The notes: generated by a model from the letters alone, not told the origin. A stretch of DNA of 64,000 nt from Candidatus Latescibacterota bacterium (GCA_965208105.1 OZ242318.1:1056001-1120000), one strand, 5' to 3'; numbered from the stretch's first letter, positions 6,177 to 27,319 are shown. A program made the numbers and translations.

Positions 6177-6265
6177 AGTTCCTCCCCTATTTCGCGCCGT
6201 CGTCCAAATCCGGCGATCAGGCGGGACCACTGCCCGCCGAAGTCGGGGACGACGATTTTCAAAGT

Positions 6266-6811: not shown

Positions 6812-6841
6812 GATTTTCTCCCGTAGTTGGTAAAATTCAAG

Positions 6842-7705: not shown

Positions 7706-7722
7706 CTCTCCTTCGTAAAATT

Positions 7723-7977: not shown

Positions 7978-8111
7978 GCACATAGGTAAAAGAGTATGAA
8001 CAACAACGGGATTAGATTTTCAAAAAAGCGAAGTGGATCAGAGGTTCCAATAAAGGGAATTTCCCTAAATATGGGATTAATTTTCAAAATAAGTCAGATG
8101 GGGATGCGACA

Positions 8112-9716: not shown

Positions 9717-9819
9717 TCGTTTGCGATCAAAGCACAGAAAAGATCTACTTACAGTTTGAGACTATCTTTCTTACGACCTAAATTTTTAATTGAAGCTCGT
9801 TTGCAGGATCATAATTTGG

Positions 9820-10512
9820 ATGATGGCTGCAATACTGATAATCGATGACGACGAAGAACTGACGGACCTTCTAGAGACCTATTTGGGAGATTTCGGATTC
9901 AAGACAACCGCTGTGTCCAGCCCGTCCAAGGGTATAGAGCTTCTTGGAAAAAGCGACTTCGACCTCGTAATTCTCGATGTAATGTTGCCCGAAATGGATG
10001 GATTCAATGTCTGCAAAACCATCCGGGAAACACATACTCTCCCCATAATTATGCTCACGGCTCGTGGAGAAATCACGGATCGTGTTGTCGGGCTGGAACT
10101 CGGAGCAGACGATTATTTACCCAAGCCCTTTGAACCCAGAGAGTTAGTCGCTCGGATTCAGGCGGTCCTCAGGCGGGGGCATAAGCCGGCCAAAAAAGGC
10201 ATTCTTGAAATCGGTGATCTGAAAATCAACCTGGAGAAATATACCGCGACCATTGACGGCGTCTCTTTGGATCTGACAACCACTGAATTCGAAATGCTCG
10301 TCCTGTTAGTCCAAAGTGGCGGCAGAGTCCTCAGCCGCGATTATATCATGCAGAATATTCGGGGCGTAGATTGGACAGCCTTCGACCGCTCCGTTGATGT
10401 TCTTATCTCGAGAATACGTCACAAGCTGAAAGACGATCCGCGAAACCCACACTATATACGGACGATTCGCGGGGCGGGTTATGTGTTTGTCGGCGCGACT
10501 GAGGCCGCATGA
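9820..10512 (+). CDS. OmpR/CpxR-family response regulator
   Basis: IIDDD, ILDVMLP, MLTARG, GADDYLPKPF, RSVDVLISRIRHKL...IRTIRGAGY. Confidence 0.95.
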   Translation: MMAAILIIDDDEELTDLLETYLGDFGFKTTAVSSPSKGIELLGKSDFDLVILDVMLPEMDGFNVCKTIRETHTLPIIMLTARGEITDRVVGLELGADDYLPKPFEPRELVARIQAVLRRGHKPAKKGILEIGDLKINLEKYTATIDGVSLDLTTTEFEMLVLLVQSGGRVLSRDYIMQNIRGVDWTAFDRSVDVLISRIRHKLKDDPRNPHYIRTIRGAGYVFVGATEAA

Positions 10513-11822: not shown

Positions 11823-11857
11823 CCTGAATAGCCTCGCGTCCTCTTCTTCGCATTATC

Positions 11858-12115
11858 TGCACGTTTACATCTCATTACAATTGGTTACAAAGCAGCAATC
11901 TTCGATTAATAACTGGCTCGTAGTATTAGTCATGTCGCCTGGATCGATGCTTGATCCAGATACTGTGTAACAGATCCCGCGATAAAATACAGCGGTCTGA
12001 TGCGCATGGCTAAAACGCAGTTATCAATCAGGATAGGTGCATTATGATTAAATCCATCGCATTCCCAATGGCGTGTCTGTTGCTGCTGCCAGGCACGAGC
12101 ATCGCAGCCCAGGAG
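11858..12115 (+). repeat. Copy 2 (intact) of duplicated promoter/leader, including TTACA x3 box at 11865-11889
   Basis: Similar to 7723-7977; continues into the intact TonB receptor start at 12044. Confidence 0.92.
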
Positions 12116-14416
12116 AGATTTACCGTCAGCGGTTATGTCAAAGATGCCGCCGACGGCGAAGCCATACCCGGCGTCAACATCGCCGTATCGGCCATGGAGG
12201 CAGGCACAACGACGAACGCCTACGGCTATTACGCACTGCGGCTCCCCGCAGGCACTCATATGGTCGCGTTCACCTTTATCGGCTATGACGCGATTGTACG
12301 TCCTGTTGACCTCAATCAAGATCAAGTGCTCAATATCGAATTGGCCGCGGCAGCAATAGAGCTGACCCAGACCACTGTGAGCGCCGAGCGAGTCGATGAG
12401 AATGTCGGCTCCATCGAAATGAGCGCCGCCGAATTGGATATAAAGACCGTAGAGCGCGCGCCCGCCGTTTTGGGCGAAGCCGATCTGGTGCAAACAATCC
12501 AGTTGTTGCCGGGGGTGACGACCGTACGCGAAGGGGCTGCGGGATTTAACGTGCGCGGCGGGGCAGCAGATCAAAACCTGGTCCTGCTCGATGAAGCCAT
12601 AGTCTACAATGCGGCGCACCTCTTCGGCTTCTTCTCGGTCTTCAATGCCGACATCACCAAAGACATCAGGATCTACAAAGGAGGGATCCCTGCCCAGTAT
12701 GGCGGGCGGTTGTCCTCGGTGTTAGATGTGCGGCAAAAAGAGGGCAATGCCAAAAAGTTCCGGGGCAAGGCAGGCATAGGGGTCCTGTCGGGGCGCATGC
12801 TACTGGAAGGCCCGATCGCCGAAGGTCGTGGATCCTATGTAGTCGCCGGACGCCGTTCTTATGGCGACATCTTTTATAATGCGTTCAGCAGCGACAACAG
12901 CACCGCTCATTTCTACGACGTCAATTTTAAAGGCAACTACAATATCAACGACAACAACCGCCTCTTCGTCTCGGGTTATCGCGGCAGGGATGCCTTCAAA
13001 GTCGCTGATATTTTCGGCAACGCCTGGGGCAATACCACCACCACCGTCCGCTGGAACCGTCTCTTCAGCCGGAGATTGTTCGCCAATTTCACAGGCGTGT
13101 TCAGCCGCTACAGCTACGATAGCGATACGTTTACCGCTGGGGCGGAGCACAATTGGCTGTCCCACATCACCAACTTCAAGTTCAAATCTGATTTCTTCTA
13201 CTCATTGACCGAGGGGAATTCGCTCAATTTCGGCGCCAGCAGTATCTATTACGGCTTCACTCCTGCCAATATCAAACCTATCGGGAAAACGTCTTCGGTT
13301 GTTGCGGCGAAGCTGGATCGACAGAAGGCTGTAGAGCCAAGCGCTTATGTCAGCTTGGACCATCGACTCACCGACTTCCTCTCGTTCCAATATGGGTTGC
13401 GTCTGTCGGCGTTCAGTCGTCAGGGGGGGCAGGATTTACCCGTCTATCGCGACAACCAGCCGATCGTATACAACGAGACCTTGGGCCGGTATGAAGCGGG
13501 GGTAATCAAAAGCATCACCTCGTATGAAAACTGGAAGAACGTAAAAAGCTTTACGGGTCTGGAGCCCCGCGTATCGGCGCGATGGTCGCTGACGGAATCC
13601 AGCTCGATCAAGGCAAGCTACAATCGCACCCGGCAGTATATCCACCTCATCTCCAATACGACCGCATCCCAGCCCCTGGATATCTGGAGACCCAGCGGCC
13701 CCTTTGTCGAACCACAGACAGCCGACCAGATCGCCGGTGGATATTTCCGAAACTTTCGGGAGAATGTGTACGAAGCTTCGGTCGAAGCCTATTACAAGAA
13801 GATGAACAATCTGATCGACTACTTCGACGGGGCCCATCTGACATTCAACAACAACCTGGAGACCGAGCTATTGAAGGGCAAGGGCCGATCCTACGGCGTA
13901 GAGCTGATGGTGCGCAAACGCACGGGACGCTTGACTGGTTGGCTGGGCTATACGTGGTCGCGCACCGAGCGCCAGGTCCCTGGATTGGGCGGCGGCGATC
14001 CGGGCATCAACAATGGGGAATATTATCCGGCTAACAATGACAAGGCACACGATCTGACCTTGACCACCGTATACGCCCTTAAACCGCGTTGGTCCCTATC
14101 GACAAACTTCGCCCTGTCTACGGGTACGCCCACGACTTTCCCGATCAGCCGCTACGAGTTCGCCAATTTCACCGTTCCGCAGTATGAGACGCGGAATGGG
14201 GCTCGCTTGCCGGCCTATCACCGCCTGGATTTGGGACTGACCTACACCACGGCCAATGACCACAGTTGGGTCTTCAGCATCTACAATCTGTATAACCGAC
14301 ACAATGCCGCTACAATCAGTGTCCGACAAAGCGAGAAGGACAAGCTCGTCACCCAAGCTGTACAGACTTCGATTTTCGGCATCCTTCCCAGCATAACCTA
14401 TAACCGGAGCTTTTAA
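12044..14416 (+). CDS. TonB-dependent receptor with N-terminal carboxypeptidase-regulatory-like domain
   Basis: Signal peptide, TVSGYVKDA...TNAYGYY, plug LLPGV...NVRGG...DQN...YGGRLSSV, RLPAYHRLD, terminal Phe. Confidence 0.93.
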   Translation: MIKSIAFPMACLLLLPGTSIAAQERFTVSGYVKDAADGEAIPGVNIAVSAMEAGTTTNAYGYYALRLPAGTHMVAFTFIGYDAIVRPVDLNQDQVLNIELAAAAIELTQTTVSAERVDENVGSIEMSAAELDIKTVERAPAVLGEADLVQTIQLLPGVTTVREGAAGFNVRGGAADQNLVLLDEAIVYNAAHLFGFFSVFNADITKDIRIYKGGIPAQYGGRLSSVLDVRQKEGNAKKFRGKAGIGVLSGRMLLEGPIAEGRGSYVVAGRRSYGDIFYNAFSSDNSTAHFYDVNFKGNYNINDNNRLFVSGYRGRDAFKVADIFGNAWGNTTTTVRWNRLFSRRLFANFTGVFSRYSYDSDTFTAGAEHNWLSHITNFKFKSDFFYSLTEGNSLNFGASSIYYGFTPANIKPIGKTSSVVAAKLDRQKAVEPSAYVSLDHRLTDFLSFQYGLRLSAFSRQGGQDLPVYRDNQPIVYNETLGRYEAGVIKSITSYENWKNVKSFTGLEPRVSARWSLTESSSIKASYNRTRQYIHLISNTTASQPLDIWRPSGPFVEPQTADQIAGGYFRNFRENVYEASVEAYYKKMNNLIDYFDGAHLTFNNNLETELLKGKGRSYGVELMVRKRTGRLTGWLGYTWSRTERQVPGLGGGDPGINNGEYYPANNDKAHDLTLTTVYALKPRWSLSTNFALSTGTPTTFPISRYEFANFTVPQYETRNGARLPAYHRLDLGLTYTTANDHSWVFSIYNLYNRHNAATISVRQSEKDKLVTQAVQTSIFGILPSITYNRSF

Positions 14417-14418
14417 CC

Positions 14419-15285
14419 ATGAAAAACATACAAATCGCCATCTGGATGGCAGCGCCCCTGTTCACAGCGTGTGAGAGAGTCGTCGATATAGATGTGGAAG
14501 AAGGGCCGGAACGGCTCGTTGTCGAGGGGCGCATCGAGCGCAATATAGACGACCCGGATGCGGTGCAGTCTCTCCGGTTGTCTACCACGGCTCCCTACTT
14601 CAGTAACGAGCCAACCCCCGCGGCCAGCGGAGCAGAGGTGGTCGTGCTGGACGACTCAGGCAACACCTATCCCTTTACCGAGTCGTCGGATCAACCCGGC
14701 ATCTACGAAAACGGGGATATGCGTCCCGAGGTCGGGCGGGCCTACACCCTTGAAATTGATCTTGACGGCGAATCCTATCGAGCGGTCGAAACATTACTTC
14801 CCGTTGCGCCCATCGACCGGATCTACCAGCAATTCAACAAATCTAACCCGTTCGAGGAGGAAGGCATCCATGTAAAGATCGATTATCAAGATGTCGCCGG
14901 TCGCGAAGACTACTATCTGTGGGAGCAGTTCGCCGATGGTGTATCGCAAGCCAAGCCCGATGACGGTAATGAGTTCAATTTCGTCGGATCGGATGATTTG
15001 TATGACGGGGAGTGGGCCATCGGCTTCGAGCCGAACGAAGAAGCGACCGTAGAACCGGGCCAATTGATCCGCGTACGACAGCTCTCGTTATCAAAAAGGG
15101 CCTTTGACTATTATTTCCTGATCTTCCAGCAGACGGGGCAAAATCCGGTCTTCCCTACCCCTGCGGCCTTGGTTCGTGGCAACGTTGAGAATCTGACCAA
15201 TCCCGACCATTATGCATTGGGGTATTTTGGCGCCAGCGAAGTGGATGTTGCGGAGCTGGTTATCGTGGAAGAAGACGCGCCATGA
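14419..15285 (+). CDS. DUF4249-family lipoprotein
   Basis: FTAC lipobox followed by ERVVDIDV...LVVEG; GNVEN...ALGYFGAS C-terminal motif; typical partner of this receptor type. Confidence 0.85.
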   Translation: MKNIQIAIWMAAPLFTACERVVDIDVEEGPERLVVEGRIERNIDDPDAVQSLRLSTTAPYFSNEPTPAASGAEVVVLDDSGNTYPFTESSDQPGIYENGDMRPEVGRAYTLEIDLDGESYRAVETLLPVAPIDRIYQQFNKSNPFEEEGIHVKIDYQDVAGREDYYLWEQFADGVSQAKPDDGNEFNFVGSDDLYDGEWAIGFEPNEEATVEPGQLIRVRQLSLSKRAFDYYFLIFQQTGQNPVFPTPAALVRGNVENLTNPDHYALGYFGASEVDVAELVIVEEDAP

Positions 15286-15506
15286 AGATTTGCCAGGCAG
15301 CCCGTCACTACCGGCCTCGGAAAGCTATCTCCAAGCATGCTCGTACTTGCTCTGGAAGAAGAGAGCCTCCATCAGGTCGGTTGAAGCCTGTCAGGGTGGT
15401 GCCGGAGTGCCAATTTTTGTTATCCTTGCGGTGGCGCCTGCCGTCCAGGCAGGCTGGTGGGGCTTGATCTCGAGGGGGACCCTTCAGAAGAGAAACGGAG
15501 GTCAAT

Positions 15507-16931
15507 ATGACCGCAGCTATCGACGAAATCCTGGCGTTCGCTCCGGCCTCGGAGCTTCGAAAGCTCATCGCCGGCAAGGAACTATCCCCCGTGGAGCTCA
15601 CGGAGATGTATCTCAGGCGCATCGACCGTCTCGACTCTCGCCTCGACTCCTATCTCACGGTGGCCCACGACCAGGCCATGTCCGCCGCGCGGTCGGCGGA
15701 GGAGGCCGTCATGCGCGGCGACGACCTCGGCCCGCTCCACGGTCTGCCCATATCGATCAAGGACCTTGAATTGACCAGGGGTTTGAGGACGACCTCAGGA
15801 TCACTGATCTTCGAGGACAGGGTGCCCGACGAGGACTCGGTCGTGGTGGAGCGCGTCCGGCAGTCGGGCGCGGTGATCCTGGGCAAGACCAACACGCCTG
15901 AGTTCGGGCAGTCGGGAACGACCGACAACCGCCTGGGCGGCCCGTGCCGCAACCCGTGGAACACGGAGCGCACCACCGGAGGCTCCAGCGGCGGCGCGGG
16001 CGCGTCTACGGTTGCCGGCTTATGCGCCCTGGCCCAGGGCAGCGACGGGGGCGGCTCCATCCGCATACCTTCGAGCTTCTGCGGCGTCTACGGCCTGAAG
16101 CCGACGCAGGGGCGGGTGCCCTATTACGCCGGTCCCAGTCCCGCAATCCCCAACCACTTCAGCCAGGCGGGTCCGATGACCAGGGCGGTCGCGGACGCCG
16201 CGATGCTGCTTCAGGTGCTCGCCGGCCACGACCCCAGGGACCCGTCGTCGATACGCCAGGCCCCTCCCGACTTCCTGGCCGCGCTGGACAGGGACGTCTC
16301 AGGGCTGAGAATGGCCTGGAGCCCGGACTACGGCTACGCCGCCGTCGACCCGGAGGTCGTCGAAGTCGCGTCCCGCGCGGCGATGGCCTTCGAGGAGGTG
16401 GGATGCACCGTCGAGGGCTCCGACATCAGCCTCGATTCGCCGTTCGATGCCTTCTGGACCTTGTTCAGCGCGGTGGGCTACACCCGACTCGGCCTTCTCC
16501 TCGAAAAGGCCGACATGCTGACCGACTATGCCCGGGAGTGCATCGAGAAGGGGGCCTCGGTCACGGGGGCCGACTACGCTGCCTCCCTGGCCTACCTCGA
16601 CCGTCTCAGGCAGCAGTTCGCCGATCTATTCGACGACTACGACCTGCTGTTGTCTCCGACGATGGCCGTGCCGGCCTTCCCGGTGGACGGCCGGCCCGCC
16701 CGGATCGCGGGCCGCGACGTAGACAGCCTCTGGGGATTCCTGCCATTCACCTATCCCATAAACATGATCGGCCATCCCGCTGCAAGCATCCCCGCGGGCT
16801 TCTCTACCGAGGGCATGCCAATAGGACTGCACATCGTCGGCCGGTGGGGAGACGAGGAAACGGTGCTCGCCGCGTCCGCCGCCTTCGAGAAGGCCAGGCC
16901 CTGGATCGAGGGCAGGCCGCCGGTCTCCTGA
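15507..16931 (+). CDS. Amidase-signature family amidase
   Basis: GPLHGLPISIKD, GKTNTPEFG, GGSSGG, GSDGGGSIRIP. Confidence 0.93.
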   Translation: MTAAIDEILAFAPASELRKLIAGKELSPVELTEMYLRRIDRLDSRLDSYLTVAHDQAMSAARSAEEAVMRGDDLGPLHGLPISIKDLELTRGLRTTSGSLIFEDRVPDEDSVVVERVRQSGAVILGKTNTPEFGQSGTTDNRLGGPCRNPWNTERTTGGSSGGAGASTVAGLCALAQGSDGGGSIRIPSSFCGVYGLKPTQGRVPYYAGPSPAIPNHFSQAGPMTRAVADAAMLLQVLAGHDPRDPSSIRQAPPDFLAALDRDVSGLRMAWSPDYGYAAVDPEVVEVASRAAMAFEEVGCTVEGSDISLDSPFDAFWTLFSAVGYTRLGLLLEKADMLTDYARECIEKGASVTGADYAASLAYLDRLRQQFADLFDDYDLLLSPTMAVPAFPVDGRPARIAGRDVDSLWGFLPFTYPINMIGHPAASIPAGFSTEGMPIGLHIVGRWGDEETVLAASAAFEKARPWIEGRPPVS

Positions 16932-17621: not shown

Positions 17622-19109
17622 TCAGGTCGATTGACGGTCCGCCCCGGGCCGGCCGAACTCCCAGGAGTGGAGCGTCGCCCTCATCATCTCGAAGCGCACG
17701 GTGATCTTCGTTCCGGCCAGCCCCGATAGATCCGCACTGCCGCGCCAGCTCACCTCGCGCCCGAACTCGTCCCCGGCGAGCGGGTCGCAGTCGGCGAAAT
17801 CAAACCTCTCCAGTGGCTCTGTTTTTTCCGGCGGATATGGCAGATCCTTGTAGAGCGCGGCGCGAATCCAACCGCCCCGTTCGGTGGAATAGTTGAGTCG
17901 CAGCGGCCCGCCTTCCGCCATGCTGCCGATCAGCGAAAAGCTGCCATGGTCCTCCGCGCGCAGGCCGCCGATCCGGTCCCGGGGCCAGGTAGCCCAGGCG
18001 ACATGGCTGCGCTTGTCCCTGTCGAGATAATAGCCTTCGTTGTGCCTGGCATCGCTCGCCCCGTACGGCACCGCCATGCGGCCGTCTTCCAGAACCAGCA
18101 ACTCGGTCCCGACGTACGGCCCCCCTTCCTCGCCGCTTCCGCTTCCACCACAGGCCAGGACCGGAGTTCGCCCCGCCCGCGTCCAGTTGATGCCATCGCG
18201 GCTAACCGCCAGGAACACATCCACCTTGTCGTTGAGCTGGTCGAAGACCGAGGGAAACATCATGTGGAGACCGGCGCCGGGATAGGGCGAATAGGCATTG
18301 GTGTAGAAGGAGTGGCTGGGTCCGTCCTCCAGGCCGGGCACGACGATCGTTTCCGGTTTGGCCCACCGGCGAAAATCATCTGTCTCGGCGCGCCCGATGG
18401 CGCGGCGGCCGTTGGCGTGGGTGCGAAAAAACCCCACGTAGGTGCCCCGGTCGCCGTCGTAGCGGCAGATGGTCTGGGTATCGCAGAACATCTCGAACAG
18501 GATGTCCTCCAGCGCGGTCCAGTTGACGCCGTCGGGAGAGACCGCACCGCGATGGGTGCCGATCAGCTGTACTTCCTTCCGCATCTCATCCCTCGAGTAC
18601 CCCGCCTCTCCCAATTCGCGCCACCGGCGCAGTCCCTCTTCAGCGGTGATCTCCTTGCCCTTGTCGAACCACTGGGGGCAGTGGCCTATCCGTTTGTAGC
18701 GCTCGGCGGGAGGTGCGCTCGGATCGATGAAGGTGCAGCCGGTCCGCACCCCCGGTCCTCGCCGGCAGATATTGTTGAGGTGGGAACCGTTGAATTCGAA
18801 CAGTCCCAGTTCGGGCCGTGTCCACGACAAGCCTTCCTCGCTCTCGGCGTAGCAGAGCAGCTGATCGTTGATGCCCTTGCCGCACTGCGTTCCGTACCAC
18901 ATCCGGTACTTGCCGCCGTCGCGGAACACCGTGACATGGCTCAGGCCGCCTTCCCATGGCATTTCGTCGGTGAGGACAGGTGCCGAGCGTTCGGCCTGGT
19001 TGAATATCAACCGCACGCCCCGGGGAGGATGATAGTGGTAGGCCCTGCCGTCCGGCTCGTAGCCGGCGAAACCGGAATAGATGTCGGCGTAGTCAAGTAA
19101 CGGGCGCAT
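17622..19109 (-). CDS. Putative five-bladed beta-propeller glycoside hydrolase-like protein
   Basis: YRMWY, YAESEEGLSWTRPELG, SPDGVNW, SRDGINW repeats; paralog of 36850-38439; start ATG 19109 after AAAGGAG. Confidence 0.65.
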   Translation of the reverse strand: MRPLLDYADIYSGFAGYEPDGRAYHYHPPRGVRLIFNQAERSAPVLTDEMPWEGGLSHVTVFRDGGKYRMWYGTQCGKGINDQLLCYAESEEGLSWTRPELGLFEFNGSHLNNICRRGPGVRTGCTFIDPSAPPAERYKRIGHCPQWFDKGKEITAEEGLRRWRELGEAGYSRDEMRKEVQLIGTHRGAVSPDGVNWTALEDILFEMFCDTQTICRYDGDRGTYVGFFRTHANGRRAIGRAETDDFRRWAKPETIVVPGLEDGPSHSFYTNAYSPYPGAGLHMMFPSVFDQLNDKVDVFLAVSRDGINWTRAGRTPVLACGGSGSGEEGGPYVGTELLVLEDGRMAVPYGASDARHNEGYYLDRDKRSHVAWATWPRDRIGGLRAEDHGSFSLIGSMAEGGPLRLNYSTERGGWIRAALYKDLPYPPEKTEPLERFDFADCDPLAGDEFGREVSWRGSADLSGLAGTKITVRFEMMRATLHSWEFGRPGADRQST

Positions 19110-19276
19110 CGCATCTCCTTTCGGTCGGGGCTCCGTTAATGTATTTGTCTGGAAAAAATGCTGCGATACTTGGCGCGGTGTCACTCATTGATCACGGGGG
19201 GCCCATCCGCCAAGGGTTCTCCCAACCGCAATTCCCCCACCATACTGATCTAAATTGATTGGATTCGAATATCCTT

Positions 19277-20392
19277 CTAACGCACGAAGGACCGCTGAAT
19301 CTCCTCGGGCGTCCGGTGGGAATACTCGAACGCATCTATATCCAGTATCGGATGAGCCGCGGCGATCGACTCATCCACGTCGCATCCAAGGCCGGGAGCC
19401 TCGGGCACGAGGATAGCGCCCCCTTCTTCCTGGATGCATCCCGGCGCCACGTCGTATCGCCAGGGGACGTCATCCGCCTTGTGTTCGAGGAAGATGCAGT
19501 TGGGGATCGACGCGAGCACGTGCAGGTTCGCCATCTCGATGATCGGCCCCACGGAGCCGTCGTGAGGGGCCACGGTCACCGATTGGGCCTCGGCCATGGC
19601 CGCCAACTTCTTGAGCTCGGTGATCCCGCCCAGGCGGGTAGTCTCCGGCTGCACGATATCCACCAGGTTGCGCGCCAGCAGCTCCGAAAAGGCCCACTTG
19701 GTCGCGAAACGCTCTCCCGTTGCCAGTGGAACCGCGACCTTCTCAGCAACCTTCGCGAAAGCCTCGACATTCTCCGGCACCACGGGGTCCTCCAGAAACA
19801 TGGGACGGTACGGCTCGCATCCCCGTCCGAGCTGGATGGCGGCGGACGGGGTCATTTCCGCGTGACAGTGAACGCCGATCTCCACCTCGTATCCCACCGC
19901 CTCGCGCAAGCTTTTAATCGTTTCGATCTTCGGCCCGCACTTGAAGAACCTGTAGCCGCGATCGATCAGCCTCTCCGCCTCCGCCGGCGTGCTGGCGTGA
20001 CCGTACACCGGAATTCTGTCCCGCATCTTGCCGCCCAACAGCTCCCAGACCGGAACGCCGAGCGCCTTGCCCTTTATGTCCCACAGGGCACAGTCGAGAG
20101 CGCTGATCATCCCACCACGCACCGACCCCGTTACCCCGTGACCGTGCAGGATATCGTAGAGCCTGAGCCAGAGTCTTTCGATCTGGAAGGGGTTTTCGCC
20201 GATCACGAAGTGTTTCATCTCCTGGATCGCCTTCTCCACGATAAACGGCCAGCCGCCTCCTTCGCCTACGCCGGTCACGCCCTCGTCGGTGAAAACCTTG
20301 ACGAACAACCAGTTCCGTCCACGGGGGCGCGAGTTCATCGACGAACCCTCGTTCGCGTTGACCAGATAGGTTTTAACATCGGTGATCTTCAT
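19277..20392 (-). CDS. Mandelate racemase/galactonate dehydratase-like enolase-superfamily enzyme
   Basis: MKITDVK, TDEGVTGVGE, ALWDIKGKALGVPVWELLGG, FLEDP, ATGER, GGITE, APH. Confidence 0.9.
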   Translation of the reverse strand: MKITDVKTYLVNANEGSSMNSRPRGRNWLFVKVFTDEGVTGVGEGGGWPFIVEKAIQEMKHFVIGENPFQIERLWLRLYDILHGHGVTGSVRGGMISALDCALWDIKGKALGVPVWELLGGKMRDRIPVYGHASTPAEAERLIDRGYRFFKCGPKIETIKSLREAVGYEVEIGVHCHAEMTPSAAIQLGRGCEPYRPMFLEDPVVPENVEAFAKVAEKVAVPLATGERFATKWAFSELLARNLVDIVQPETTRLGGITELKKLAAMAEAQSVTVAPHDGSVGPIIEMANLHVLASIPNCIFLEHKADDVPWRYDVAPGCIQEEGGAILVPEAPGLGCDVDESIAAAHPILDIDAFEYSHRTPEEIQRSFVR

Positions 20393-20447
20393 GCTGGTGG
20401 TCTCCTTATTTCATGCAACCGTCGGACTTGGGTGTTGTTAATTCTTC

Positions 20448-20537
20448 GCATATCGTTTTCACGGTTTACGAACCCACGAAGTGGGTTGCCGCAGGCCAAG
20501 GGGCGAATGCCCCGCAGCGTAAATGGATGTGATATAT
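20448..20537 (-). repeat. attC-like site 5 (GAT cores at both ends)
   Basis: Plus strand gcatatc-gttttca-cggtttacg-aacccac gaa gtgggtt-gccgcaggccaa-ggggc gaat gcccc-gcag-cgtaaatgg-atgt-gatatat. Confidence 0.8.
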
Positions 20538-20604
20538 GAAATGGGACTCTTCATTACCTGTACCAGAGCTCTACTGCTGGAGCTGCCGGGGAGGGTGCCG
20601 AGCA

Positions 20605-21261
20605 TCAGTCGTGGTGGCGTTTGTAATAATGTCTGATCTTTGGGTCGCGGAAGCGAACGACCGTGTTGTGGCCCCAAACGGCCAAGCCAACTGCACCGCG
20701 CGACTCCCCAGGCAGCGTCAACCGATTGACCAATACACCGTTCACGTAGCTGGTCACTGAGCGATCACGGACCTTGAGGACAATGTCATATTCGCGACCA
20801 GGCTCCATAACGAAATCAACGACATCGAGTTTGACATCCTCACGAGTTTCCTCGTTCCGACGGACGACGACCATGGTCTTCCAACCCGTCAGGTATGTCA
20901 GGAAATGCGACGAAACACCGTCGTCGGAGATTCCAAATACGAGTTGCGGACCGGACCCCTTCTCAATGGTGGCCTGCACCTTGAATTCATAGGCAGCCCA
21001 GGTCCCATCTCCCTGGACAAGCCGCCCGCGGCTTGCCTGGCCCGTATCGGCAATGATGGCGTCGCCCTCGCGACGCCATACGGAAGGGGTGAAAGGGCCT
21101 TCACTGGCATGCCATCCGGCCAAGCCCTCACCCTCTACCATTGACTCCCACGGCTTGCCGATATCCGCTCGACCGTAGTCGTTCTCAAAGGAAGGAGTTC
21201 CGACAGCGGCACTCACTGTAGTTAGTAGGCCCAGGTAGATTGCGTAGTGAATTTTCTCCAT
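20605..21261 (-). CDS. Cassette 5: secreted DUF1080 / 3-keto-disaccharide hydrolase-like protein
   Basis: Signal peptide from MEKIHY (ATG 21261), W..M.EGEGLAGW...WRREGDAI...YEFKVQ...SYVNGVLV...GAVGLAVWG...VRFRDPKIR. Confidence 0.75.
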   Translation of the reverse strand: MEKIHYAIYLGLLTTVSAAVGTPSFENDYGRADIGKPWESMVEGEGLAGWHASEGPFTPSVWRREGDAIIADTGQASRGRLVQGDGTWAAYEFKVQATIEKGSGPQLVFGISDDGVSSHFLTYLTGWKTMVVVRRNEETREDVKLDVVDFVMEPGREYDIVLKVRDRSVTSYVNGVLVNRLTLPGESRGAVGLAVWGHNTVVRFRDPKIRHYYKRHHD

Positions 21262-21301
21262 TACATGGTCTCCGGTCGGTGATTCCGGTTCTTCCCATTT
21301 C

Positions 21302-21398
21302 ATATATCGTTCCGCCGGTTTGCAAACCCCGAGCTTGGCGAGGGGTTGCCGCAGGCCAAGGCGACGTAGCCGCCGAAGCACAAACCGTGCTGTTATAC
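21302..21398 (-). repeat. attC-like site 4
   Basis: Plus strand atatatc-gttccgc-cggtttgca-aacccc...ggggtt-gccgcaggccaa-ggcg...cgcc-gaag-cacaaaccg-tgct-gttatac. Confidence 0.85.
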
Positions 21399-21411
21399 GT
21401 CGTGATATTCA

Positions 21412-21879
21412 TTACTCTGTTGAATGCAACTCGTCTCTGATCCTACCACCAATCTCATTCATCTGATCTTCACTGACACTTTCCTCCTGAGAAACACCCA
21501 GATAAGCAAATACTCTAGTGCTTCGCCGGTCGGCCGGTTGATTAGCCATTCGAGGCACAATATGGAAGTGTACATGCGGATGATCCTTGGCCTCGGCAAA
21601 CTGGATCACATATGTTTTCACGCATCCGACTACAGCCTTAAGAGACAAGGAAACACGCCGAATCAAGGGCCCCAATTCTGCGGCTTCCTGCTCAGTGAGC
21701 TCATCAAGCGATTCGATGTGTCGTTGCAGAACCAACACCAGCCATCCGGGCAATGAGGTATCGAACGCATGCGCAACATCCCAGAACCTGGTCTGGTAAA
21801 TGCTGTCGTAAAGTGGCGCCTTCCCCAGCCTTCTTCGTGCAGTCAATTCGCACGTCTTGCACGTGTCACTACCGTTCAT
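21412..21879 (-). CDS. Cassette 4: HIT-family nucleotide hydrolase
   Basis: CKTC N-terminus, PGWLVLV, HVHFHIVPR triad; ATG 21879. Confidence 0.88.
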   Translation of the reverse strand: MNGSDTCKTCELTARRRLGKAPLYDSIYQTRFWDVAHAFDTSLPGWLVLVLQRHIESLDELTEQEAAELGPLIRRVSLSLKAVVGCVKTYVIQFAEAKDHPHVHFHIVPRMANQPADRRSTRVFAYLGVSQEESVSEDQMNEIGGRIRDELHSTE

Positions 21880-21907
21880 GTCCGACCTCTCATTGCATCT
21901 CCATGTC

Positions 21908-21996
21908 GTGTAACGTTCTGCCGGTTTGCGAACCTCGATGTGGTTGCCGAAGGCCAAGGGGCGGCAGCGCCTCAACGCAACACCGTGATTTTAGCG
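21908..21996 (-). repeat. attC-like site 3 (R'' mutated to CGCTAAA)
   Basis: Plus strand gtgtaac-gttctgc-cggtttgcg-aacc...ggtt-gccgaaggccaa-ggggcg gcag cgcctc-aa-cgcaacaccg-tgat-tttagcg. Confidence 0.82.
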
Positions 21997-22006
21997 GAAG
22001 TTTCAC

Positions 22007-22222
22007 TCAATTCAATAGATCGCGAAATTGCTCAACGGAAAGACCCGCGTCTCGAACAATTCCGCCCATTGTGAACGCATTGACCGGATTGCTTCGGGGA
22101 ATAGTCAAGATCCGGGTACCGTCACTCATGACGATGTGTTTACCCTGGCGAATTATCCGAAATCCAGCCTTTTCCAAGGCCCTTACGGCCCGCAGGTGAT
22201 TGACCTCTGGAATCTTGGGCAT
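22007..22222 (-). CDS. hicA: Cassette 3: HicA-family toxin
   Basis: MPKIP...AVRALEKAGF...QGKHIVM...TIPR...TMGGIVRDAGLSVEQFRDLL. Confidence 0.88.
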   Translation of the reverse strand: MPKIPEVNHLRAVRALEKAGFRIIRQGKHIVMSDGTRILTIPRSNPVNAFTMGGIVRDAGLSVEQFRDLLN

Positions 22223-22223
22223 C

Positions 22224-22421
22224 CTAAAGCGTCAGCTCCACCTCTTTGACTTGAGCGTCTCCTAGTAGTTCGTCGACCGCTGCAAGGTATTCGCGTATAG
22301 CCGCTTCGATGTTTGCAAGCGCTTCCGCCTCGGATGCACCTTGAGACCAACAACCGGGAAGCCCAGGAACAGAAACACTCCATCCCTCATCAGATTCGAG
22401 CAACGCGACTTTGTACTTCAT
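22224..22421 (-). CDS. hicB: Cassette 3: short HicB-family antitoxin (no DNA-binding domain)
   Basis: MKYKVAL...SVPGLPGCWSQG...EALANIEAAIREYL. Confidence 0.9.
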   Translation of the reverse strand: MKYKVALLESDEGWSVSVPGLPGCWSQGASEAEALANIEAAIREYLAAVDELLGDAQVKEVELTL

Positions 22422-22542
22422 TTCGACACCTTCCTTACTTGCGGCAATAGAGCACCATTTGCCAAATGAGGATCATAATTCAATAAATTCTTGCGAACTT
22501 CCGTGCATCACGGCGATGTAAGAATTTTCCACGTCCTATTTC

Positions 22543-22637
22543 CGCTAACGTTTCGCCGGTTTGCGAACCTGGCGCAGCCAGGTTGCTGAAAGCCAAGCCG
22601 CCTGAAGGGCGGCGTAGCGAAAACCGGTGTGTTATGT
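22543..22637 (-). repeat. attC-like site 2
   Basis: Plus strand cgctaac-gtttcgc-cggtttgcg-aacctggc gca gccaggtt-gctgaaagccaa-gccgcc tgaag ggcggc-gtag-cgaaaaccg-gtgt-gttatgt. Confidence 0.87.
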
Positions 22638-22644
22638 GCCGTGC

Positions 22645-23493
22645 CTACCCAACGTACGCTCGCCCAGATGATGTTTTCGAATGATCGGATTCCAGGGAAA
22701 TTTGAGTGATGGTGTCGTGGGCGCGTCCCGTGCGGTCATGGTGCACATACACGATGTCGTCAATGACGATTCGCCGATTACCCGGATACTTGCAGGTCAA
22801 GTCCCCGCCCCGGAAATACTGCCCATCATAGCGCCGGAAGAAGACGGTCCTTCCTCCTTCTTCAACGAAGGCTTCCACGAGCTCTCCACCGTTTGGTGAG
22901 GACAAGCCGGGTATGGGATCCAAGATACGAATACAACAAAACCTGTTGTCGCCGATAGTCACATCGTAGGTACCAGCACCGAGACCTTGCGCATCGGTCG
23001 TCTTGTAGGCGCCATCACTCAGGCGTTCGTACCGCCCATCGTCAACTATTCGACGATTCATAGAACCGCCCCAGTTGGCTTCGAAGGTCCTGTCGCCCAG
23101 CAATTCGAACACGCGTCTCCCACGCAAAGTCTTGACCACTCCAACCCATCGGGCACCCTGGTCGTCCAACAGTGCGTACATGTACCCGGGATTGAATTCT
23201 GTTGGCCAGTCCTTCCGATTTGCATACTCTTGCAATCGAAGCTCGACACAATCTGTGTCACGGAGCCTTGCTGGACCCACGGACACGATTTCGGTAACCC
23301 CTGTTAGCTGGAGCGTATCCGATTCATACGCGGCCCACATGCAGTGTTCCCCCAGCCTAGGTACGGCAAACCACCACTGTAGCTCCGGGCAGCCGACTTC
23401 GTCTACTCTCTCGCAACTTTCCTCGATCGTGACCTCAGGCCGCGTCAATGGAAACCCACGACTCGTCGCGTTGCTGGCGTTCTCAGGATTCAT
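22645..23493 (-). CDS. Cassette 2: hypothetical protein (282 aa)
   Basis: ATG 23493 with RBS GGAG; ORF fills the space between two attC-like sites; no family recognised. Confidence 0.75.
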   Translation of the reverse strand: MNPENASNATSRGFPLTRPEVTIEESCERVDEVGCPELQWWFAVPRLGEHCMWAAYESDTLQLTGVTEIVSVGPARLRDTDCVELRLQEYANRKDWPTEFNPGYMYALLDDQGARWVGVVKTLRGRRVFELLGDRTFEANWGGSMNRRIVDDGRYERLSDGAYKTTDAQGLGAGTYDVTIGDNRFCCIRILDPIPGLSSPNGGELVEAFVEEGGRTVFFRRYDGQYFRGGDLTCKYPGNRRIVIDDIVYVHHDRTGRAHDTITQISLESDHSKTSSGRAYVG

Positions 23494-23549
23494 GATGGGA
23501 TCTCCGATATCGCCTTGGGAGGTCGATGTCTGTGTGCTTCTGGCATGCC

Positions 23550-23646
23550 GCCTAACGTTTCGCCGGTTTGCGAACCCCGAGCTTGGCGAGGGGGTTGCCG
23601 CAAGCCAAGGCGCGCAAGCGCCGAAGCGCAAACCGTGCTGTTAGAT
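23550..23646 (-). repeat. attC-like site 1
   Basis: Minus strand ATCTAAC-AGCA-CGGTTTGCG...CGCAAACCG-GCGAAAC-GTTAGGC; perfect RYYYAAC and GTTRRRY cores. Confidence 0.9.
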
Positions 23647-23670
23647 GAAGCTCTCTCAGAAGTCAGATCT

Positions 23671-24042
23671 TTACGCGTCAATGGCTTCACGTGTAACGGA
23701 TGGTTCGAAAAAACGCTCCTGGAACTCCGTCAAAGCCAGGATCTGCTCGTCTGAGTAGTCTCTACCGGCAGGTACGACAATGAGCTTATCATCATCGTCG
23801 TCCGATCGTTGAATGACGGCGATACATCTGCCTGTAAAAGCCTCTATCGGTTTGAAGACACCCAGGATATAGGCGTCCATATTTTCTCCGTCAGGCGCCG
23901 GAACGTCCGGAAGAAATCCGTAGTTGACAGGATAGATGAAGCCCGCTTCAGGATGCCTGGAGCCAAGGGGTCGATCAATCGTAAGATCGACCATTTCTCC
24001 GATGAACTTCCTTGCATCCACGAAATTCTCCGTCATGGTCAT
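23671..24042 (-). CDS. Cassette 1: small inorganic pyrophosphatase-family protein
   Basis: IDRPLGSRHP...YPVNYG...DGENMDAYILG...DDDDKLIV...FQERFF. Confidence 0.85.
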   Translation of the reverse strand: MTMTENFVDARKFIGEMVDLTIDRPLGSRHPEAGFIYPVNYGFLPDVPAPDGENMDAYILGVFKPIEAFTGRCIAVIQRSDDDDDKLIVVPAGRDYSDEQILALTEFQERFFEPSVTREAIDA

Positions 24043-24089
24043 TTAATCTCCCAGCCATGTTGAAGTGAGGCAACGCTGCTCCGAGTTTC

Positions 24090-24126
24090 ATCTAACTGCC
24101 TATATGCGAACCATGGTTTCGCATAA
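24090..24126 (-). other. attI-like attachment site
   Basis: Minus strand TTATGCGAAAC-CAT-GGTTCGCATAT-AGGCA-GTTAGAT; R box GTTAGAT starts cassette 1; no attC-type hairpin upstream. Confidence 0.75.
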
Positions 24127-24378
24127 TGGCCTCCAAGTGCTGCTAATCTGAAACGAAGGTACCTATTGTCGAGAGCGGTCGCAACTAACGCCCACAATAC
24201 TTTAAATTCGCGTAACTCCTTTATATTTAAATAGATAAATCGATTCTTCATCGATTCTGTGCGACGACAACCGGTTCATCAGGAATCCTGCCGGACCCTT
24301 GCGTACTGTCCCAGCGAATTACATAGTACCGGGTACCGGTATCGGCGCCGAATTTTCATTCATTGAGGAGGAACTGGT

Positions 24379-24825
24379 ATGATCCGAGCCGTCACCTCGG
24401 AGGACATGATTGCTTGCGCACGTCTATTCGCGAAGGTCTTCTCCGAATGGCCGTACGAGGAATCGTGGACCATTGCCCAAGCCCACGACTACCTCGATCG
24501 GTTCTGGAGGTTCGATTCCGAGCATTGTCTCGTCGCTCTTGACAAAGATGAGGTTATCGGAGCGATGTTCGGATACTGCTACCCCTGGCAGAACAGAATC
24601 AACTACTACATGCAGGAGCTCTTTGTCGAGGCGGATCGGCGGCGGTCGGGCCATGGTCGAAAGCTGGTGCGCCATCTGCTCGACGGGCTTGGAGAATCAG
24701 GTACATCCATGTCCCTGATCGCCAATGAGGCAACGCCGGCTGCCGCCTTCTACCAGGAGCTTGGACTGCGGCAGCATAGATACTACAAGTTCTACTGTGG
24801 TACGGTGAACAGGGGCGACGAGTAG
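24379..24825 (+). CDS. GNAT-family N-acetyltransferase
   Basis: VFSEWPYEESW, ELFVEADRRRSGHGRKL motif A, AAAFYQELG; RBS GAGGAGG. Confidence 0.88.
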   Translation: MIRAVTSEDMIACARLFAKVFSEWPYEESWTIAQAHDYLDRFWRFDSEHCLVALDKDEVIGAMFGYCYPWQNRINYYMQELFVEADRRRSGHGRKLVRHLLDGLGESGTSMSLIANEATPAAAFYQELGLRQHRYYKFYCGTVNRGDE

Positions 24826-24955
24826 CCCGTCGTATAACCAGGTCGAATTCTCAGGGTCATGATTCCTCCTGAAGATTATCAGCGCACATCTTGACATCGC
24901 CATTTAAAATTATGGATTCAATGACGGTCGTTTCATTCTGCTCGAACTCGTTGGA

Positions 24956-27319
24956 GTGAACCACTCGATGCTGGGAATAGCCATATCCGCCGTTCTGTTC
25001 ATGGGCATGGTGCTGCCGACGCGCGCCCAAATTGAAAAGAGCGATCTCTACATCGGCCTATTGCTCGACTTCGGGGCCGAGGCGACCGGTGCGGAGCGGG
25101 ACTTGGCGCTCCTGCAGGAGGAAATCCACAAGGTGCTGGGGGTCGACAAGTCGGTCCATTTCCTCCCCGAGCACATGCGCTTTTCCGCCGGGCACGCAGG
25201 CTATATGTCCCTGGCCAACGACCCGGCGGTCGACCTGATCATTGTCGCCGGGCCGGCCAGCGCGGCGATGCTGGCCGCTCAAGGAGCCCTGCCCAAACCG
25301 ACGATCGCCGTGGGGATACTGGATGTGGAGTTACAGCAGATTCCCCTCGTCGAGCCTGGCGTCTCCGGGGTGCGAAATTTCACCTATGTCCTCGGTACCC
25401 ACTCGATCGAAAAGGACCTGGCGGCGTTCCACCGCATCCATCCCTTTGCCCATCTGGCCGTCGTCGTCAGTGAAAACCTGAAGGGCAGGCTGGATTTCGA
25501 GGGTTTCTTCGAACGCATTGCGGCGCCTTACGGGGCCCAGGTGGAGGTGTTTTTTTGGGGGGAAGAAACCTCTCTACCGACCCTGAACGACGGGGTCGAC
25601 ACGGTCTATCTGGCGGCGGTCTTCGAGCGCTCCCTGGAGGAGGTCGGCCTGCTGGCTGAGGCCCTCGCCGAGCGCAGTCTGCCTTCCTTTGCCATGAGCC
25701 GGTCTTATGTGGATGCGGGAATCATGGCCTGTATCGGCGACGAGAGCGGCCGCGACCATATTTTCCGCAAGCTGGCCCTGATCGTCGAGGGAGTGGCGCT
25801 GGGAGAGGAACTGGCGGCTATGCCCGTGCGGTACAATCTCGACGAGCAATGGGTGCTGAATGCCGCAACGATCCGCCGAATCGGTTTCGACCTCTCGTTT
25901 GAAGCGCTGTTTTCCGCCCGCTTCCTCAAGGCCGACGAACCCACAAGCGACCGCCGCTTGAGCTTGCAGGAGGTTATCGCCGAAGGCTTGCGGAGCAACC
26001 TCGACCTGCGCATTGAAGAGGGCAACCTCGATTTGGCCGGCCAGGATTTGCGCCGGGCAAAGTCGTCCCTGTTGCCCACGGTAGAAACCTCGGCCACAAT
26101 GCTGCAGATCGACCCGGACGCGGCGGAGCGCGCTTTTGGTCAACAGCCCGAGCGCACCGGCGCGGGTACTGGGACCGTGCAGCAGGTGCTGTTTTCCGAG
26201 CAGGTCTTCGCCAGCGTCAAAATCCAGCGCTACCTGGCCGAGGCCGCCCGCCATCGCGCCGATCTGGTCGCGCTCGACGTGGTGCTGAACCTGGCGACGG
26301 CCTATTTCAATATCCTGCTGGCCAAGACCGGGGGGCGCATCCAGGATGAAAACCTCGAGGTCTCGCGCCGCAATCTGAAGATAGCCCGCACCAGAAATGC
26401 CGTCGGCTATGCTGGCGTGGCCGACGTATTCCGCTGGGAGAGCGAAGTGGCTCGGGCCACCCAAGCCTCGATCGAGGCTTTCAACAACCTCTACCTGGCC
26501 AAAGTGCAGCTCAACCGCTTGCTCAACCGGACCGATATCGGCGAGGAGTTCGAGGTGGAGGATGCCCGGCTTTCCGACGAACTTTTTGGCCGCTTCGACC
26601 CGGCCCGCATCGGTCCCCTGATCGACCGCGCCGGCGATGTGGAGATCCTCACCGACTTTCTCGTCGAAGAAGCCCTGCAAAACATGCCTTCGCTCAAGCA
26701 GCTGGCGGCCAATATGAAGGCAGCCGAGCGCCGGCAGCAGATGAACCGGCGGCTCTACTACCTGCCTGCGGTGGCTTTGCGCGGACAGGCCGACTACACC
26801 TTCTGGCGCGCCGGCAAGGGCATGCCTCCGGCCTCCTCCGAGCCCCTCGACGGCACATGGAACCTGGCCCTCCACTTCAGCTATCCCCTCTTTCAGGGCA
26901 ACCAGCGCAAGATCGCCATCGTCCAGACCGCGATTCAGCAGCAGCAACTCCGCCTCCAGGAGGAGAGTCTGCGCCAGCAGCTCGCCCAGGCCGTCCGGGT
27001 GCGGATGACGAACCTGGTGTCCAGGCGCACCAACATACACTTTGCCGAGGTGGCCGCTGCAAGCGCGCAGAAGAACTTTGATCTGGTGCAGGACGCTTAC
27101 GAGAAGGGCCAACTGGCGATCACCCAACTGGTGGATGCCCAACGCGCCGCCCTTTCCGCCCGTCAGGCCGAGGCCGGGGCCGTCTATGAATACCTGGTCA
27201 GCTATCTGCAGTTGGAAAACAGCATCGGAGGCTACACCATGTTCATGACTTCAGAGGAGCAGGAGGCCTTTGTCGGGCGCTTGACGGCCTTCTTCTCCAA
27301 AAGAAAGAATGCACCATGA
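24956..27319 (+). CDS. TolC-family outer membrane factor fused to an N-terminal ABC substrate-binding-like domain
   Basis: C-terminal ~450 aa has two OEP repeats (LSLQEVI...NLDL, TAYFNIL, AYEKGQLAITQLVDAQ); N-terminal ~330 aa has an alpha/beta periplasmic-binding pattern ending WVLNAATIRRIG. Confidence 0.85.
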   Translation: MNHSMLGIAISAVLFMGMVLPTRAQIEKSDLYIGLLLDFGAEATGAERDLALLQEEIHKVLGVDKSVHFLPEHMRFSAGHAGYMSLANDPAVDLIIVAGPASAAMLAAQGALPKPTIAVGILDVELQQIPLVEPGVSGVRNFTYVLGTHSIEKDLAAFHRIHPFAHLAVVVSENLKGRLDFEGFFERIAAPYGAQVEVFFWGEETSLPTLNDGVDTVYLAAVFERSLEEVGLLAEALAERSLPSFAMSRSYVDAGIMACIGDESGRDHIFRKLALIVEGVALGEELAAMPVRYNLDEQWVLNAATIRRIGFDLSFEALFSARFLKADEPTSDRRLSLQEVIAEGLRSNLDLRIEEGNLDLAGQDLRRAKSSLLPTVETSATMLQIDPDAAERAFGQQPERTGAGTGTVQQVLFSEQVFASVKIQRYLAEAARHRADLVALDVVLNLATAYFNILLAKTGGRIQDENLEVSRRNLKIARTRNAVGYAGVADVFRWESEVARATQASIEAFNNLYLAKVQLNRLLNRTDIGEEFEVEDARLSDELFGRFDPARIGPLIDRAGDVEILTDFLVEEALQNMPSLKQLAANMKAAERRQQMNRRLYYLPAVALRGQADYTFWRAGKGMPPASSEPLDGTWNLALHFSYPLFQGNQRKIAIVQTAIQQQQLRLQEESLRQQLAQAVRVRMTNLVSRRTNIHFAEVAAASAQKNFDLVQDAYEKGQLAITQLVDAQRAALSARQAEAGAVYEYLVSYLQLENSIGGYTMFMTSEEQEAFVGRLTAFFSKRKNAP

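Follow-up and report, generated by a model that had tools for sequence, protein, structure and literature searches.

The window analysed here is a stretch of 64 kb (G000:C1:1056001-1120000) of the single 4.85-Mb contig of a Candidatus Latescibacterota bacterium, the source genome (G000), and coordinates without a contig name are those of the whole window. Analysis of this DNA revealed five imperfect palindromes of 89-97 nt, between and beside which lie six open reading frames (ORFs), all on the minus strand and making five cassettes, each with its site 3' of its gene (Table 1). These repeats are most probably attC-type cassette sites of an integron-like gene-capture system, and the stretch that holds them an array that lost its integrase. 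No recombinase gene was found beside the window array; its neighbours (Pfam) are a gene of the MR_MLE enolase type to one side and GNAT, OEP and HlyD genes to the other, and the nearest IntI-like gene is 1 Mb distant. With at least two sites and no integrase nearby, the five repeats form a cluster of attC sites lacking integron-integrases (CALIN), provided that they count as attC.

The 13-mer core of the palindromes was found with 0-1 mismatch at these five places only in the 64-kb window. At up to 3 mismatches it gave 30 matches, compared to 24.4 expected by chance, and therefore only near-exact core matches carry weight. A covariance model built from the five window sites (R1) returned exactly five matches in the window, with scores of 79-98.7 bits, and 89 sites at E ≤ 0.01 in the window and twelve further regions of the genome. 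Three rounds of nhmmer gave 95 site copies genome-wide, in 10 clusters of 2, 13, 5, 41, 1, 13, 3, 1, 12, and 4. The main array of 41 sites (2,010,544-2,060,602) ends 650 bp before a divergent tyrosine recombinase gene (2,061,252-2,062,187). A new covariance model had been proposed in a preliminary description of this DNA, and it led to the 89 genome sites with covarying stems and to matches beside recombinases in related genomes.

Table 1. Sites, cassettes and putative platform of the window array (R1, bit score with the covariance model built from the five sites).
Feature	Position	Strand	Remarks
Site 1, last of array	20448..20537	+	R box variant ATATC...GATAT; 7/4 spacing; three-hairpin tip; R1 90.3 bits; three-hairpin fold of minimum free energy
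Site 2	21302..21398	+	R1 80.5 bits; 5' R-box part ATATATC
Site 3	21908..21996	+	R1 79 bits; bulged C on L-stem 3' arm
Site 4, best-folding copy	22543..22637	+	R1 85.9 bits; minimum free energy as single-stranded DNA -26.3 kcal/mol, z -4.70
Site 5, closest to platform	23550..23646	+	R1 98.7 bits; inside 633-bp stretch matching main-array end
Cassette ORF, 219 aa, 3-keto-disaccharide hydrolase family	20605..21264	-	Pfam PF06439, E 5.2e-09
Cassette ORF, 156 aa, HIT domain	21412..21882	-	Pfam PF01230, E 2.5e-05
Two-gene cassette, HicB-like antitoxin (22224-22421) and HicA toxin (22007-22222)	22007..22421	-	Pfam PF15919, PF07927
Cassette ORF, 283 aa, no Pfam family	22645..23496	-	63%-identical DNA match in integrase-adjacent array of G010
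First cassette ORF, 123 aa, inorganic-pyrophosphatase-like	23671..24042	-	Pfam PF00719, E 3e-08; duplicated at main array
Putative attI-like platform, without integrase	24090..24185	+	ATCTAAC, 7-nt spacer, 9-bp hairpin (24104-24124), then stretch conserved across five genera

On the plus strand, 7 nt separate the AAC of the R box from a 9-bp stem (L stem) on the 5' arm, and 4 nt separate this stem from GTTA on the 3' arm. The preliminary description had reported this 7/4 asymmetry for all five window sites, which proved correct, and genome-wide the 7-nt spacing was found in 69/89 sites, the 4-nt spacing in 82/89 and both in 63/89. The modelled structure was paired in 85.6% of alignment cells, compared to 72.6% after shuffling and 30-41% with the partner slid, and 26 of its 29 pairs had changes on both sides, counts that derive from an alignment fitted to the model and from 89 copies that are kin rather than independent samples. 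The TAAC/GTTA columns of the R box were paired in 71-79 of the 89 sites, in agreement with the RYYYAAC/GTTRRRY ends of classical attC sites. Strong covariation was observed in the L stem and in hairpins 1 and 3 of the tip; the L stem had 89.1% of its cells paired and 8 of its 9 pairs changed on both sides, as expected of a classical L box. The compensatory exchanges quoted in the preliminary description are all present in the window sequence, and its statement that the stem of site 1 has no bulge was borne out, the two outer pairs of this stem being G.G and G.T. The L stem of site 4 contains a G.A mismatch, and an internal bulge of this stem occurs in 16/89 sites. In the R box of sites 1 and 2 (20448-20454, 20531-20537, 21302-21308), ATC/GAT replaces AAC/GTT, a variant found elsewhere among the 89 listed genome sites at the 5' end of three more and at the 3' end of five more; the 3' R-box part of site 1 (20531-20537) is complementary to the 5' part of site 2 (21302-21308) at 7/7 positions.

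Two further pairs, outside the model, covary inside the 7/4 spacer. The first (columns 20-249) is CG in 35 and GC in 21 sites, with 27 double changes; the second (columns 21-248) is CG in 30, GC in 21 and AU in 7 sites, with 30 double changes, and both together were paired in 73.7%. In the 63 exact 7/4 sites, these pairs were Watson-Crick in 48 and 45 cases, compared to 27.5 and 23.5 after shuffling. Therefore, the centre of the site is made up, in this order, of a G.T, a 4-nt 5'-arm bulge, two pairs and, on the 3' arm, a single unpaired base. The G.T next to the R box is conserved in 73 of the 86 sites with letters there. Read along the plus strand, a site begins with YYYTAAC (R') and the G.T, continues with the 4-nt pyrimidine-rich bulge, the two pairs, the 9-bp L stem and a tip of two or three hairpins, and returns through four unpaired bases just before the L-stem 3' arm (GNAG, mostly GCAG or GAAG), the return arm itself, one unpaired base and GTTARRR (R'').

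Classical attC sites have 5-6 unpaired spacer bases per arm (PMC5027507) and two or three extrahelical bases, with 6 bp between the outermost ones (PMC5027507, PMC7439510). The present sites differ from this plan in a centre of 4 x 0 nt followed by two pairs and one 3' base, in a branched tip, and in the absence of two bulges 6 bp apart; the one unpaired base outside the L stem lies 9 bp from the next unpaired bases. The preliminary description was right as to the 7/4 distances, but the spacer is partly paired, by the two covarying pairs inside it, and an extrahelical base is present after all, at another place than in classical sites. The three-hairpin cloverleaf, proposed for all sites, was the minimum free energy (MFE) fold of the plus strand in three of the five window sites (1, 3, and 4), and covariation upheld hairpins 1 and 3. 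Hairpin 2 (GCC-GNA-GGC) is nearly invariant, with double changes numbering only 2, 2, and 1, and only 35/89 sites have it as a stem of 3 bp closed by a GNA loop; about a third of the sites lack it, including a subfamily of 82-83 nt. The three-hairpin cloverleaf tip is a subfamily trait.

Both strands of each site were folded as single-stranded DNA (ssDNA), as the preliminary description had suggested, and the modelled plus strand was the more stable in 67 of 89 sites, by 1.1 kcal/mol on average. In further site sets, the same was observed in 32/39 and 25/33 sites, with means across sets of 1.1-1.3 kcal/mol. In classical sites, the bottom strand also folds better, by 2.12 kcal/mol (PMC5027507). 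The R'-L' side carries the long bulge and the L'' side the unpaired bases, an arrangement also found in classical bottom strands. These asymmetries and the greater ssDNA stability are consistent with the plus strand being the folded bottom strand, the assignment made earlier in part from the GNA loop. Loop identity was rejected as a strand marker, since a C-GNA-G loop becomes C-TNCG-G when the opposite strand is read; the loop marks neither strand, and the strand is therefore not fixed by it.

Past the TAAC of the first cassette, the window contains a stretch conserved in seven aligned copies from five genera, which we read as a putative attI-like platform. Its hairpin, 7 nt from the TAAC, carries compensatory changes in the seven-copy alignment (ATGCG/CGCAT, ACCCG/CGGGT, ATCCG/CGGAT). 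Window positions 23553-24185, which take in site 5 and the first cassette and reach about 95 nt past the TAAC that starts the latter, matched the end of the main array nearest the integrase at 95.9% identity (blastn), and this homology stops at 24185, 113 bp short of the start of the integrase gene there. In the congener G001, one of the 41 related genomes compared (labels G001-G040), the left flank of the window was found at 96-97% identity; after about 3.7 kb come six sites, whose cassettes differ from those of the window, and then a platform and an intact recombinase gene. The same chromosomal neighbourhood thus keeps a complete element in this sister genome, and the window array is therefore the counterpart of that element, parted from its integrase by rearrangement.

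Further copies of the platform were seen in both genomes: three in the source genome (window 24090-24257; G000:C1:1046784-1046935; G000:C1:2061040-2061139), of which only one stands with a recombinase gene, and at least four in G001. Past the platform, the copy in the window has the same sequence as the one at 1.047 Mb, and therefore one derives from the other. The platform-proximal cassette of G001 (locus L009, positions 146-1240) encodes 364 aa of the Beta-lactamase Pfam family PF00144 (E 4.7e-55), which implies no resistance function. This family also includes many esterases.

The cassette character of the array was supported by gene polarity. Counting only intervals of 150-4000 nt between same-strand neighbours, the longest ORF lay on the strand opposite the sites in 64 of 71 intervals of the source genome, and in 17 of 19 intervals in distant loci. 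The sites lie 3' of cassette ORFs in co-oriented arrays bounded at AAC/GTT, as classical attC sites do. Repetitive extragenic palindromic (REP) elements, bacterial interspersed mosaic elements (BIMEs) and miniature inverted-repeat transposable elements, or MITEs, would be dispersed singly and with no fixed gene polarity; REP-like dispersal unlinked to gene ends, which the preliminary description had named as evidence against its reading, was not seen, the sites standing in 10 clusters with the polarity given above.

The outer three positions of the R box provided a second line of evidence. Between neighbours at most 5 kb apart (73 pairs in the source genome), the 3' part of one site was compared with the 5' part of the next site along the plus strand. 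In the source genome, these positions were Watson-Crick with the next site in 168/219 cases, compared to 98/267 in situ and 55/219 in the reversed control. The corresponding values were 64/96, 39/117, and 23/96 in the relatives, and 45/57, 50/99, and 28/57 in the distant loci. Such next-site complementarity would be expected if a circular cassette restores a fully paired R box, with the crossover between the outer positions and the rest of the site.

The footprint of a cassette could be read directly where strains differ. In the cassette common to the main array of the source genome and to G001 (95% identity), homology starts at the TAAC of the left site and stops directly after the right TAAC, past which there is a site in the source genome and a platform in G001. 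Among other public sequencing runs, X5 and X11 have contigs that connect position 22554, which lies 5 nt beyond the site 4 TAAC, with 24099, which lies 3 nt beyond the platform TAAC, by way of 787 different letters; a contig of X10 leads from 21934, within site 3, to 24099 by way of 779. These are assembled contigs matched at 90% identity, with flanking sides of 217-255 nt. The cassette of 283 aa (22726-23495) was covered by none of the four public runs compared. Parts of 19800-24400 were found at 90% identity or more in contigs of marine and sponge metagenome runs from several studies, and no RNA data set was among the public runs listed.

The recombinase beside the main array had the integron-integrase family TIGR02249 as its best match, with 234.9 bits against a cut-off of 265, and it scored 162.5 bits against NF011946 (cut-off 435). 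The catalytic domain was recognised by PF00589 (E 8.3e-41) and also by PF13495. The match to TIGR02249 came in two stretches that leave model positions 180-234 unmatched, as in 9/9 homologues with both stretches listed, and these positions were matched in the canonical IntI of relatives. The closest solved relative by sequence was VchIntIA (2a3v, E 3.9e-47), Xer proteins giving 4.2e-39 and weaker, and the protein has 18 residues where 2a3v has 60. The AlphaFold (AF2) model of the intact G001 orthologue (predicted local distance difference test score 83.7) contained no helix at residues 197-213 and had 2a3v as its best fold match. The absent piece is the IntI-specific additional (I2) domain of about 42 residues near patch III, and the proteins without it are called insert-less below. 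In the available parts of three sources (PMC4889954; PMC7790495; an archaeal-integron preprint), this domain is called necessary for activity and is used to define IntI, a necessity that PMC4889954 takes from Messier and Roy (2001). In the available text of Smyshlyaev et al. [quoted passage not shown] The insert-less family is very large, as 7900 of 8000 scored candidates had E ≤ 1e-30, and its members are named in the sources XerD-like, tyrosine recombinase and, once, 'integron integrase'.

The gene of the source genome has one in-frame TAA at codon 58, where the 91%-identical G001 gene is open. With its recombinase 1 Mb away and interrupted by this stop, the window array would therefore be a frozen remnant. 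Homologues in G016 (TGA) and G014 (TAG) also contain one stop codon each.

A second covariance model (R2), built from all 89 sites, found matches in 22 of the 41 related genomes, and an insert-less recombinase (E ≤ 1e-40) was found in 11 of them. The enzyme was present in 9 of the 12 genomes with at least 10 sites, compared to 2 of the 29 others, among genomes that are kin and not independent. The insert-less gene adjoins sites in seven genomes, being divergent from the cassettes in five (G000, G001, G010, G014, G016) and pointing in the same direction in two (G040, G008), and it keeps its place behind the conserved platform across five genera. Canonical IntI (TIGR02249 above cut-off) occurred in 8/41 genomes; none was found in G000, G001, G010, G014, G016, or G040, which together hold 302 sites. 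No R2 site was found at E ≤ 1 within about 18 kb on each side of the canonical IntI genes of G021, G008, G026, and G019, the sole match of this neighbourhood search lying beside the insert-less gene of G008.

A classical integron was found in G019, a member of the same family (locus L130, G019:C7:25000-44999), with a canonical IntI at 18521-19456 (350 bits) and sites of about 125 nt at 5275-15698, on the side that was searched for repeats. These sites, six of the eight being aligned, contain an R helix, a 2x1 loop, 5-6 bp and a single-base 3' bulge in 7/8, with a second 3' bulge 5-6 bp further on in 5/8, and thus follow the classical attC plan. The proposal of a distinct attC-type site class gained support from this relative, in which canonical IntI accompanies two-bulge sites, and from the geometry of the window sites themselves. 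At the level of sequence comparison, the window-type class appears to go with a recombinase lacking the domain that defines IntI, and its membership in classical attC/IntI fails on the spacer, the extrahelical bases and I2.

More distant relatives of the recombinase were scanned at 80 loci, one genome per species, with insert-less-length proteins 43-59% identical, close kin lying outside this set. R2 gave 39 matches at E ≤ 1 across these loci. Detailed array comparison covered 13 of the 80 loci, and six arrays were found all downstream of the recombinase gene with the sites on the opposite strand (recombinases 43-58% identical): three in Paenibacillus (8, 5, and 3 R2 matches; L106, L063, and L064), one in Desulfitobacterium (6; L034), and one each in metagenome-assembled genomes of Spirochaetota (4; L068) and Thermodesulfobacterium (2; L040). 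The distant sites that were listed share an order of parts: TAACGTT is followed, after about 7 nt, by a stem and a branched tip that closes with a GC-rich hairpin and G(C/A)AG; the return arm comes next, then 3-4 nt and GTTA. Of six Flavobacteriaceae loci searched for repeats, four (L065, L097, L098, and L102) had clear arrays of repeats of about 130-150 nt downstream of the gene, L059 had a weaker set of three copies, and L077 had none. By eye, the spacing in L065 is AAC plus 4 nt and 7 nt plus GTT on the strand shown. The preliminary description had named similar repeats in Bacteroidota; these Flavobacteriaceae repeats stand beside homologous recombinases. The Bacillota genomes among the loci above (L063, L064, L106, and L034) have 3-8 sites directly downstream of the insert-less recombinase; for Firmicutes, a single complete integron and few CALINs are given in the available part of the IntegronFinder 2.0 preprint.

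The system appears integron-like by every comparative test run, and we infer its enzymology by analogy. The site family with its covariation, the gene polarity, the TAAC-bounded footprint, the cassette turnover between strains and the co-location with insert-less recombinases were observed, and the window stretch is, with good probability, the orphaned array of such a system. In this model, each cassette would extend between successive TAACs, its gene being on the minus strand and its own site downstream of that gene, and the array would end at the attI-like platform. The plus (bottom) strand would fold, recombinase monomers would bind the R and L helices, cleavage would fall within the AAC of R', and one strand would be exchanged, the junction being resolved by replication. 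Strand choice and the avoidance of a second exchange by an enzyme without I2 may depend on three candidate landmarks, namely the 4-nt bulge, the one unpaired base of the 3' arm and the GNAG junction. A broader proposal, for which the evidence is evenly balanced, is that these arrays form a separate cross-phylum integron class, comprising the lineage of the window, Paenibacillus, Desulfitobacterium, Spirochaetota, Thermodesulfobacterium, and Flavobacteriaceae, whose integrase never had or has lost I2 and whose folded sites are read through the 4-nt 5' bulge, the single 3' base and GNAG.

Several points weigh against this interpretation, besides the kinship of the aligned copies. G.T and A.C mismatches were even (106 vs. 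92), and thus revealed no wobble-pair strand bias. The MFE z-scores of sites 1-5 (-2.33, -0.71, -0.78, -4.70, and -2.05) are modest singly. No recombination event was directly observed and no circular cassette was seen, and as the recombinase gene of the source genome is broken by the TAA, nothing in this genome need be active now. Window-type sites without an insert-less gene found occur in G021 (58 sites), G024 (12), and G037 (10), assemblies of 5, about 210, and about 280 contigs, respectively; canonical IntI was the only enzyme found in G021, G024 has a split canonical IntI, and G037 has neither. Because of these three genomes, it is possible that canonical IntI acts in trans on window-type sites.

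The last point leads to the view that the sites are ordinary attC of a lineage flavour, moved by a canonical IntI since lost, with the insert-less recombinase as a bystander. The presence of canonical IntI in 8/41 relatives, its coexistence with 58 window-type sites in G021, and the difference of attC sequences between lineages (PMC8352920, available part) favour this view, which is nevertheless unlikely, since the six genomes without canonical IntI found hold 302 sites, no window-type site lies near canonical IntI in the four relatives searched, the one array there (G019) being classical, and the insert-less gene stands behind a conserved platform across five genera and recurs beside such arrays in other phyla. 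It is quite improbable that the sites recombine as duplex DNA, like Xer/dif or pdif modules, with hairpins that serve another purpose. R' and R'' are about 80 nt apart and are brought together only by folding, and the complementarity of the outer R-box bases kept within each cassette, like the covarying stems, would be valueless to a duplex site; yet the recombinase does lack the domain thought to confer single-strand recombination (PMC7790495, available part), its next best structural relatives are Xer proteins, and the wobble-pair bias is absent.

Elements of another nature were also considered. Sites at gene 3' ends that fold well, with a hairpin 2 that would form a C(UNCG)G loop on the mRNA strand, could be REP/MITE-like or RNA-level elements (3' stabilisers, terminators) that stand behind genes by chance. 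This is highly improbable given that terminator-like matches numbered 4 against 4.1 expected, with only one inside a site, that an Rfam scan of 19500-25000 at E ≤ 10 returned two chance-level matches only, and that the sites occur only in co-oriented arrays, with a TAAC-bounded footprint and cassette replacement between strains. Since members of this very large protein family often carry no annotation beyond XerD-like, the recombinase might also have come with an IS91-type element, as its integrase, when that element inserted into an attC site. This account can hardly be right: the gene downstream in the source genome encodes a PhyH dioxygenase, no IS91-type transposase was found nearby (no Y2_Tnp match within about 74 kb, in this genome), and across genera the recombinase genes are orthologues with a constant position.

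The integron-like reading can be compared with known systems. As in chromosomal integrons and CALINs such as the Vibrio cholerae superintegron (PMC4889954), co-oriented, short and mostly promoterless ORFs are each followed by a folded palindrome with RYYYAAC...GTTRRRY ends; the likeness of sites within a genome, a platform beside a divergent tyrosine recombinase, orphan arrays, toxin-antitoxin cassettes, inactivated integrases, a crossover footprint at AAC and the better folding of the bottom strand are also shared, and the differences are the recombinase without the IntI-specific domain and the site geometry described above. An insert-less Xer-like core presumably acting on a folded site recalls Xer and the integrative mobile elements exploiting Xer (IMEX), of which the CTX phage integrates as a folded single strand (PMC7790495, available part). 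Unlike these single integrated elements, the present system has cassette arrays behind a dedicated platform and a protein nearer to IntI than to Xer; no dif-like 28-bp site was seen, although no search was aimed at one.

The reverse-orientation integrons of Spirochaetota have a canonical IntI. The arrays of G040, G008, and the distant loci, with a recombinase gene that points as the cassettes do, resemble these integrons, which are named in the archaeal-integron preprint, whereas the clade of the window has a divergent gene, as in classical integrons. The available text of PMC8138268 states nothing on cassette arrays or sites for the insert-less members of its 'integron-like' simple tyrosine recombinase subgroup. 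In the available part of Cury et al. (PMC4889954), 21 such recombinases near attC in genomes without IntI were judged not to be IntI, and four were placed between IntI and Xer, in no case with as many as three sites nearby. No published account of insert-less IntI relatives serving cassette arrays was found; the supplementary tables of PMC4889954 and IntegronFinder 2.0 may list them as CALINs.

Two tenets of integron biology are touched by these results: that the I2 domain is necessary for activity and for recombination of folded attC (Messier and Roy, 2001, via PMC4889954; PMC7790495; available parts), and that an integron is recognised by the I2 domain together with the classical attC model. 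Here, arrays with every comparative cassette hallmark are tied to a recombinase without I2 and to another site geometry, and the occurrence of canonical IntI with classical sites in the same bacterial family offers a natural paired comparison on the role of I2. If the interpretation is true, I2 would not be needed for cassette capture through folded single-stranded sites, and the current definition of the integron would hide a large share of its diversity, Gram-positives included. This would account for phyla that seem nearly free of integrons, since standard searches would label such arrays CALINs or overlook them. The systems would then represent the link between Xer and IntI that has long been sought, or else solve the same problem in a second way.

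Minor observations concern the cassettes and the right flank of the window array. The homologue of the 3-keto-disaccharide hydrolase cassette in G016 (84% DNA identity) lies outside any site of the window type, and the G001 homologue of the pyrophosphatase cassette has its closest site at a distance of 1.7 kb. The 80-nt stretch 24252-24331, directly upstream of the GNAT gene, is a dispersed repeat, found at five places in 4.338-4.367 Mb of the source genome (79-81% identity) and in many further copies in G001, G010, and G016.

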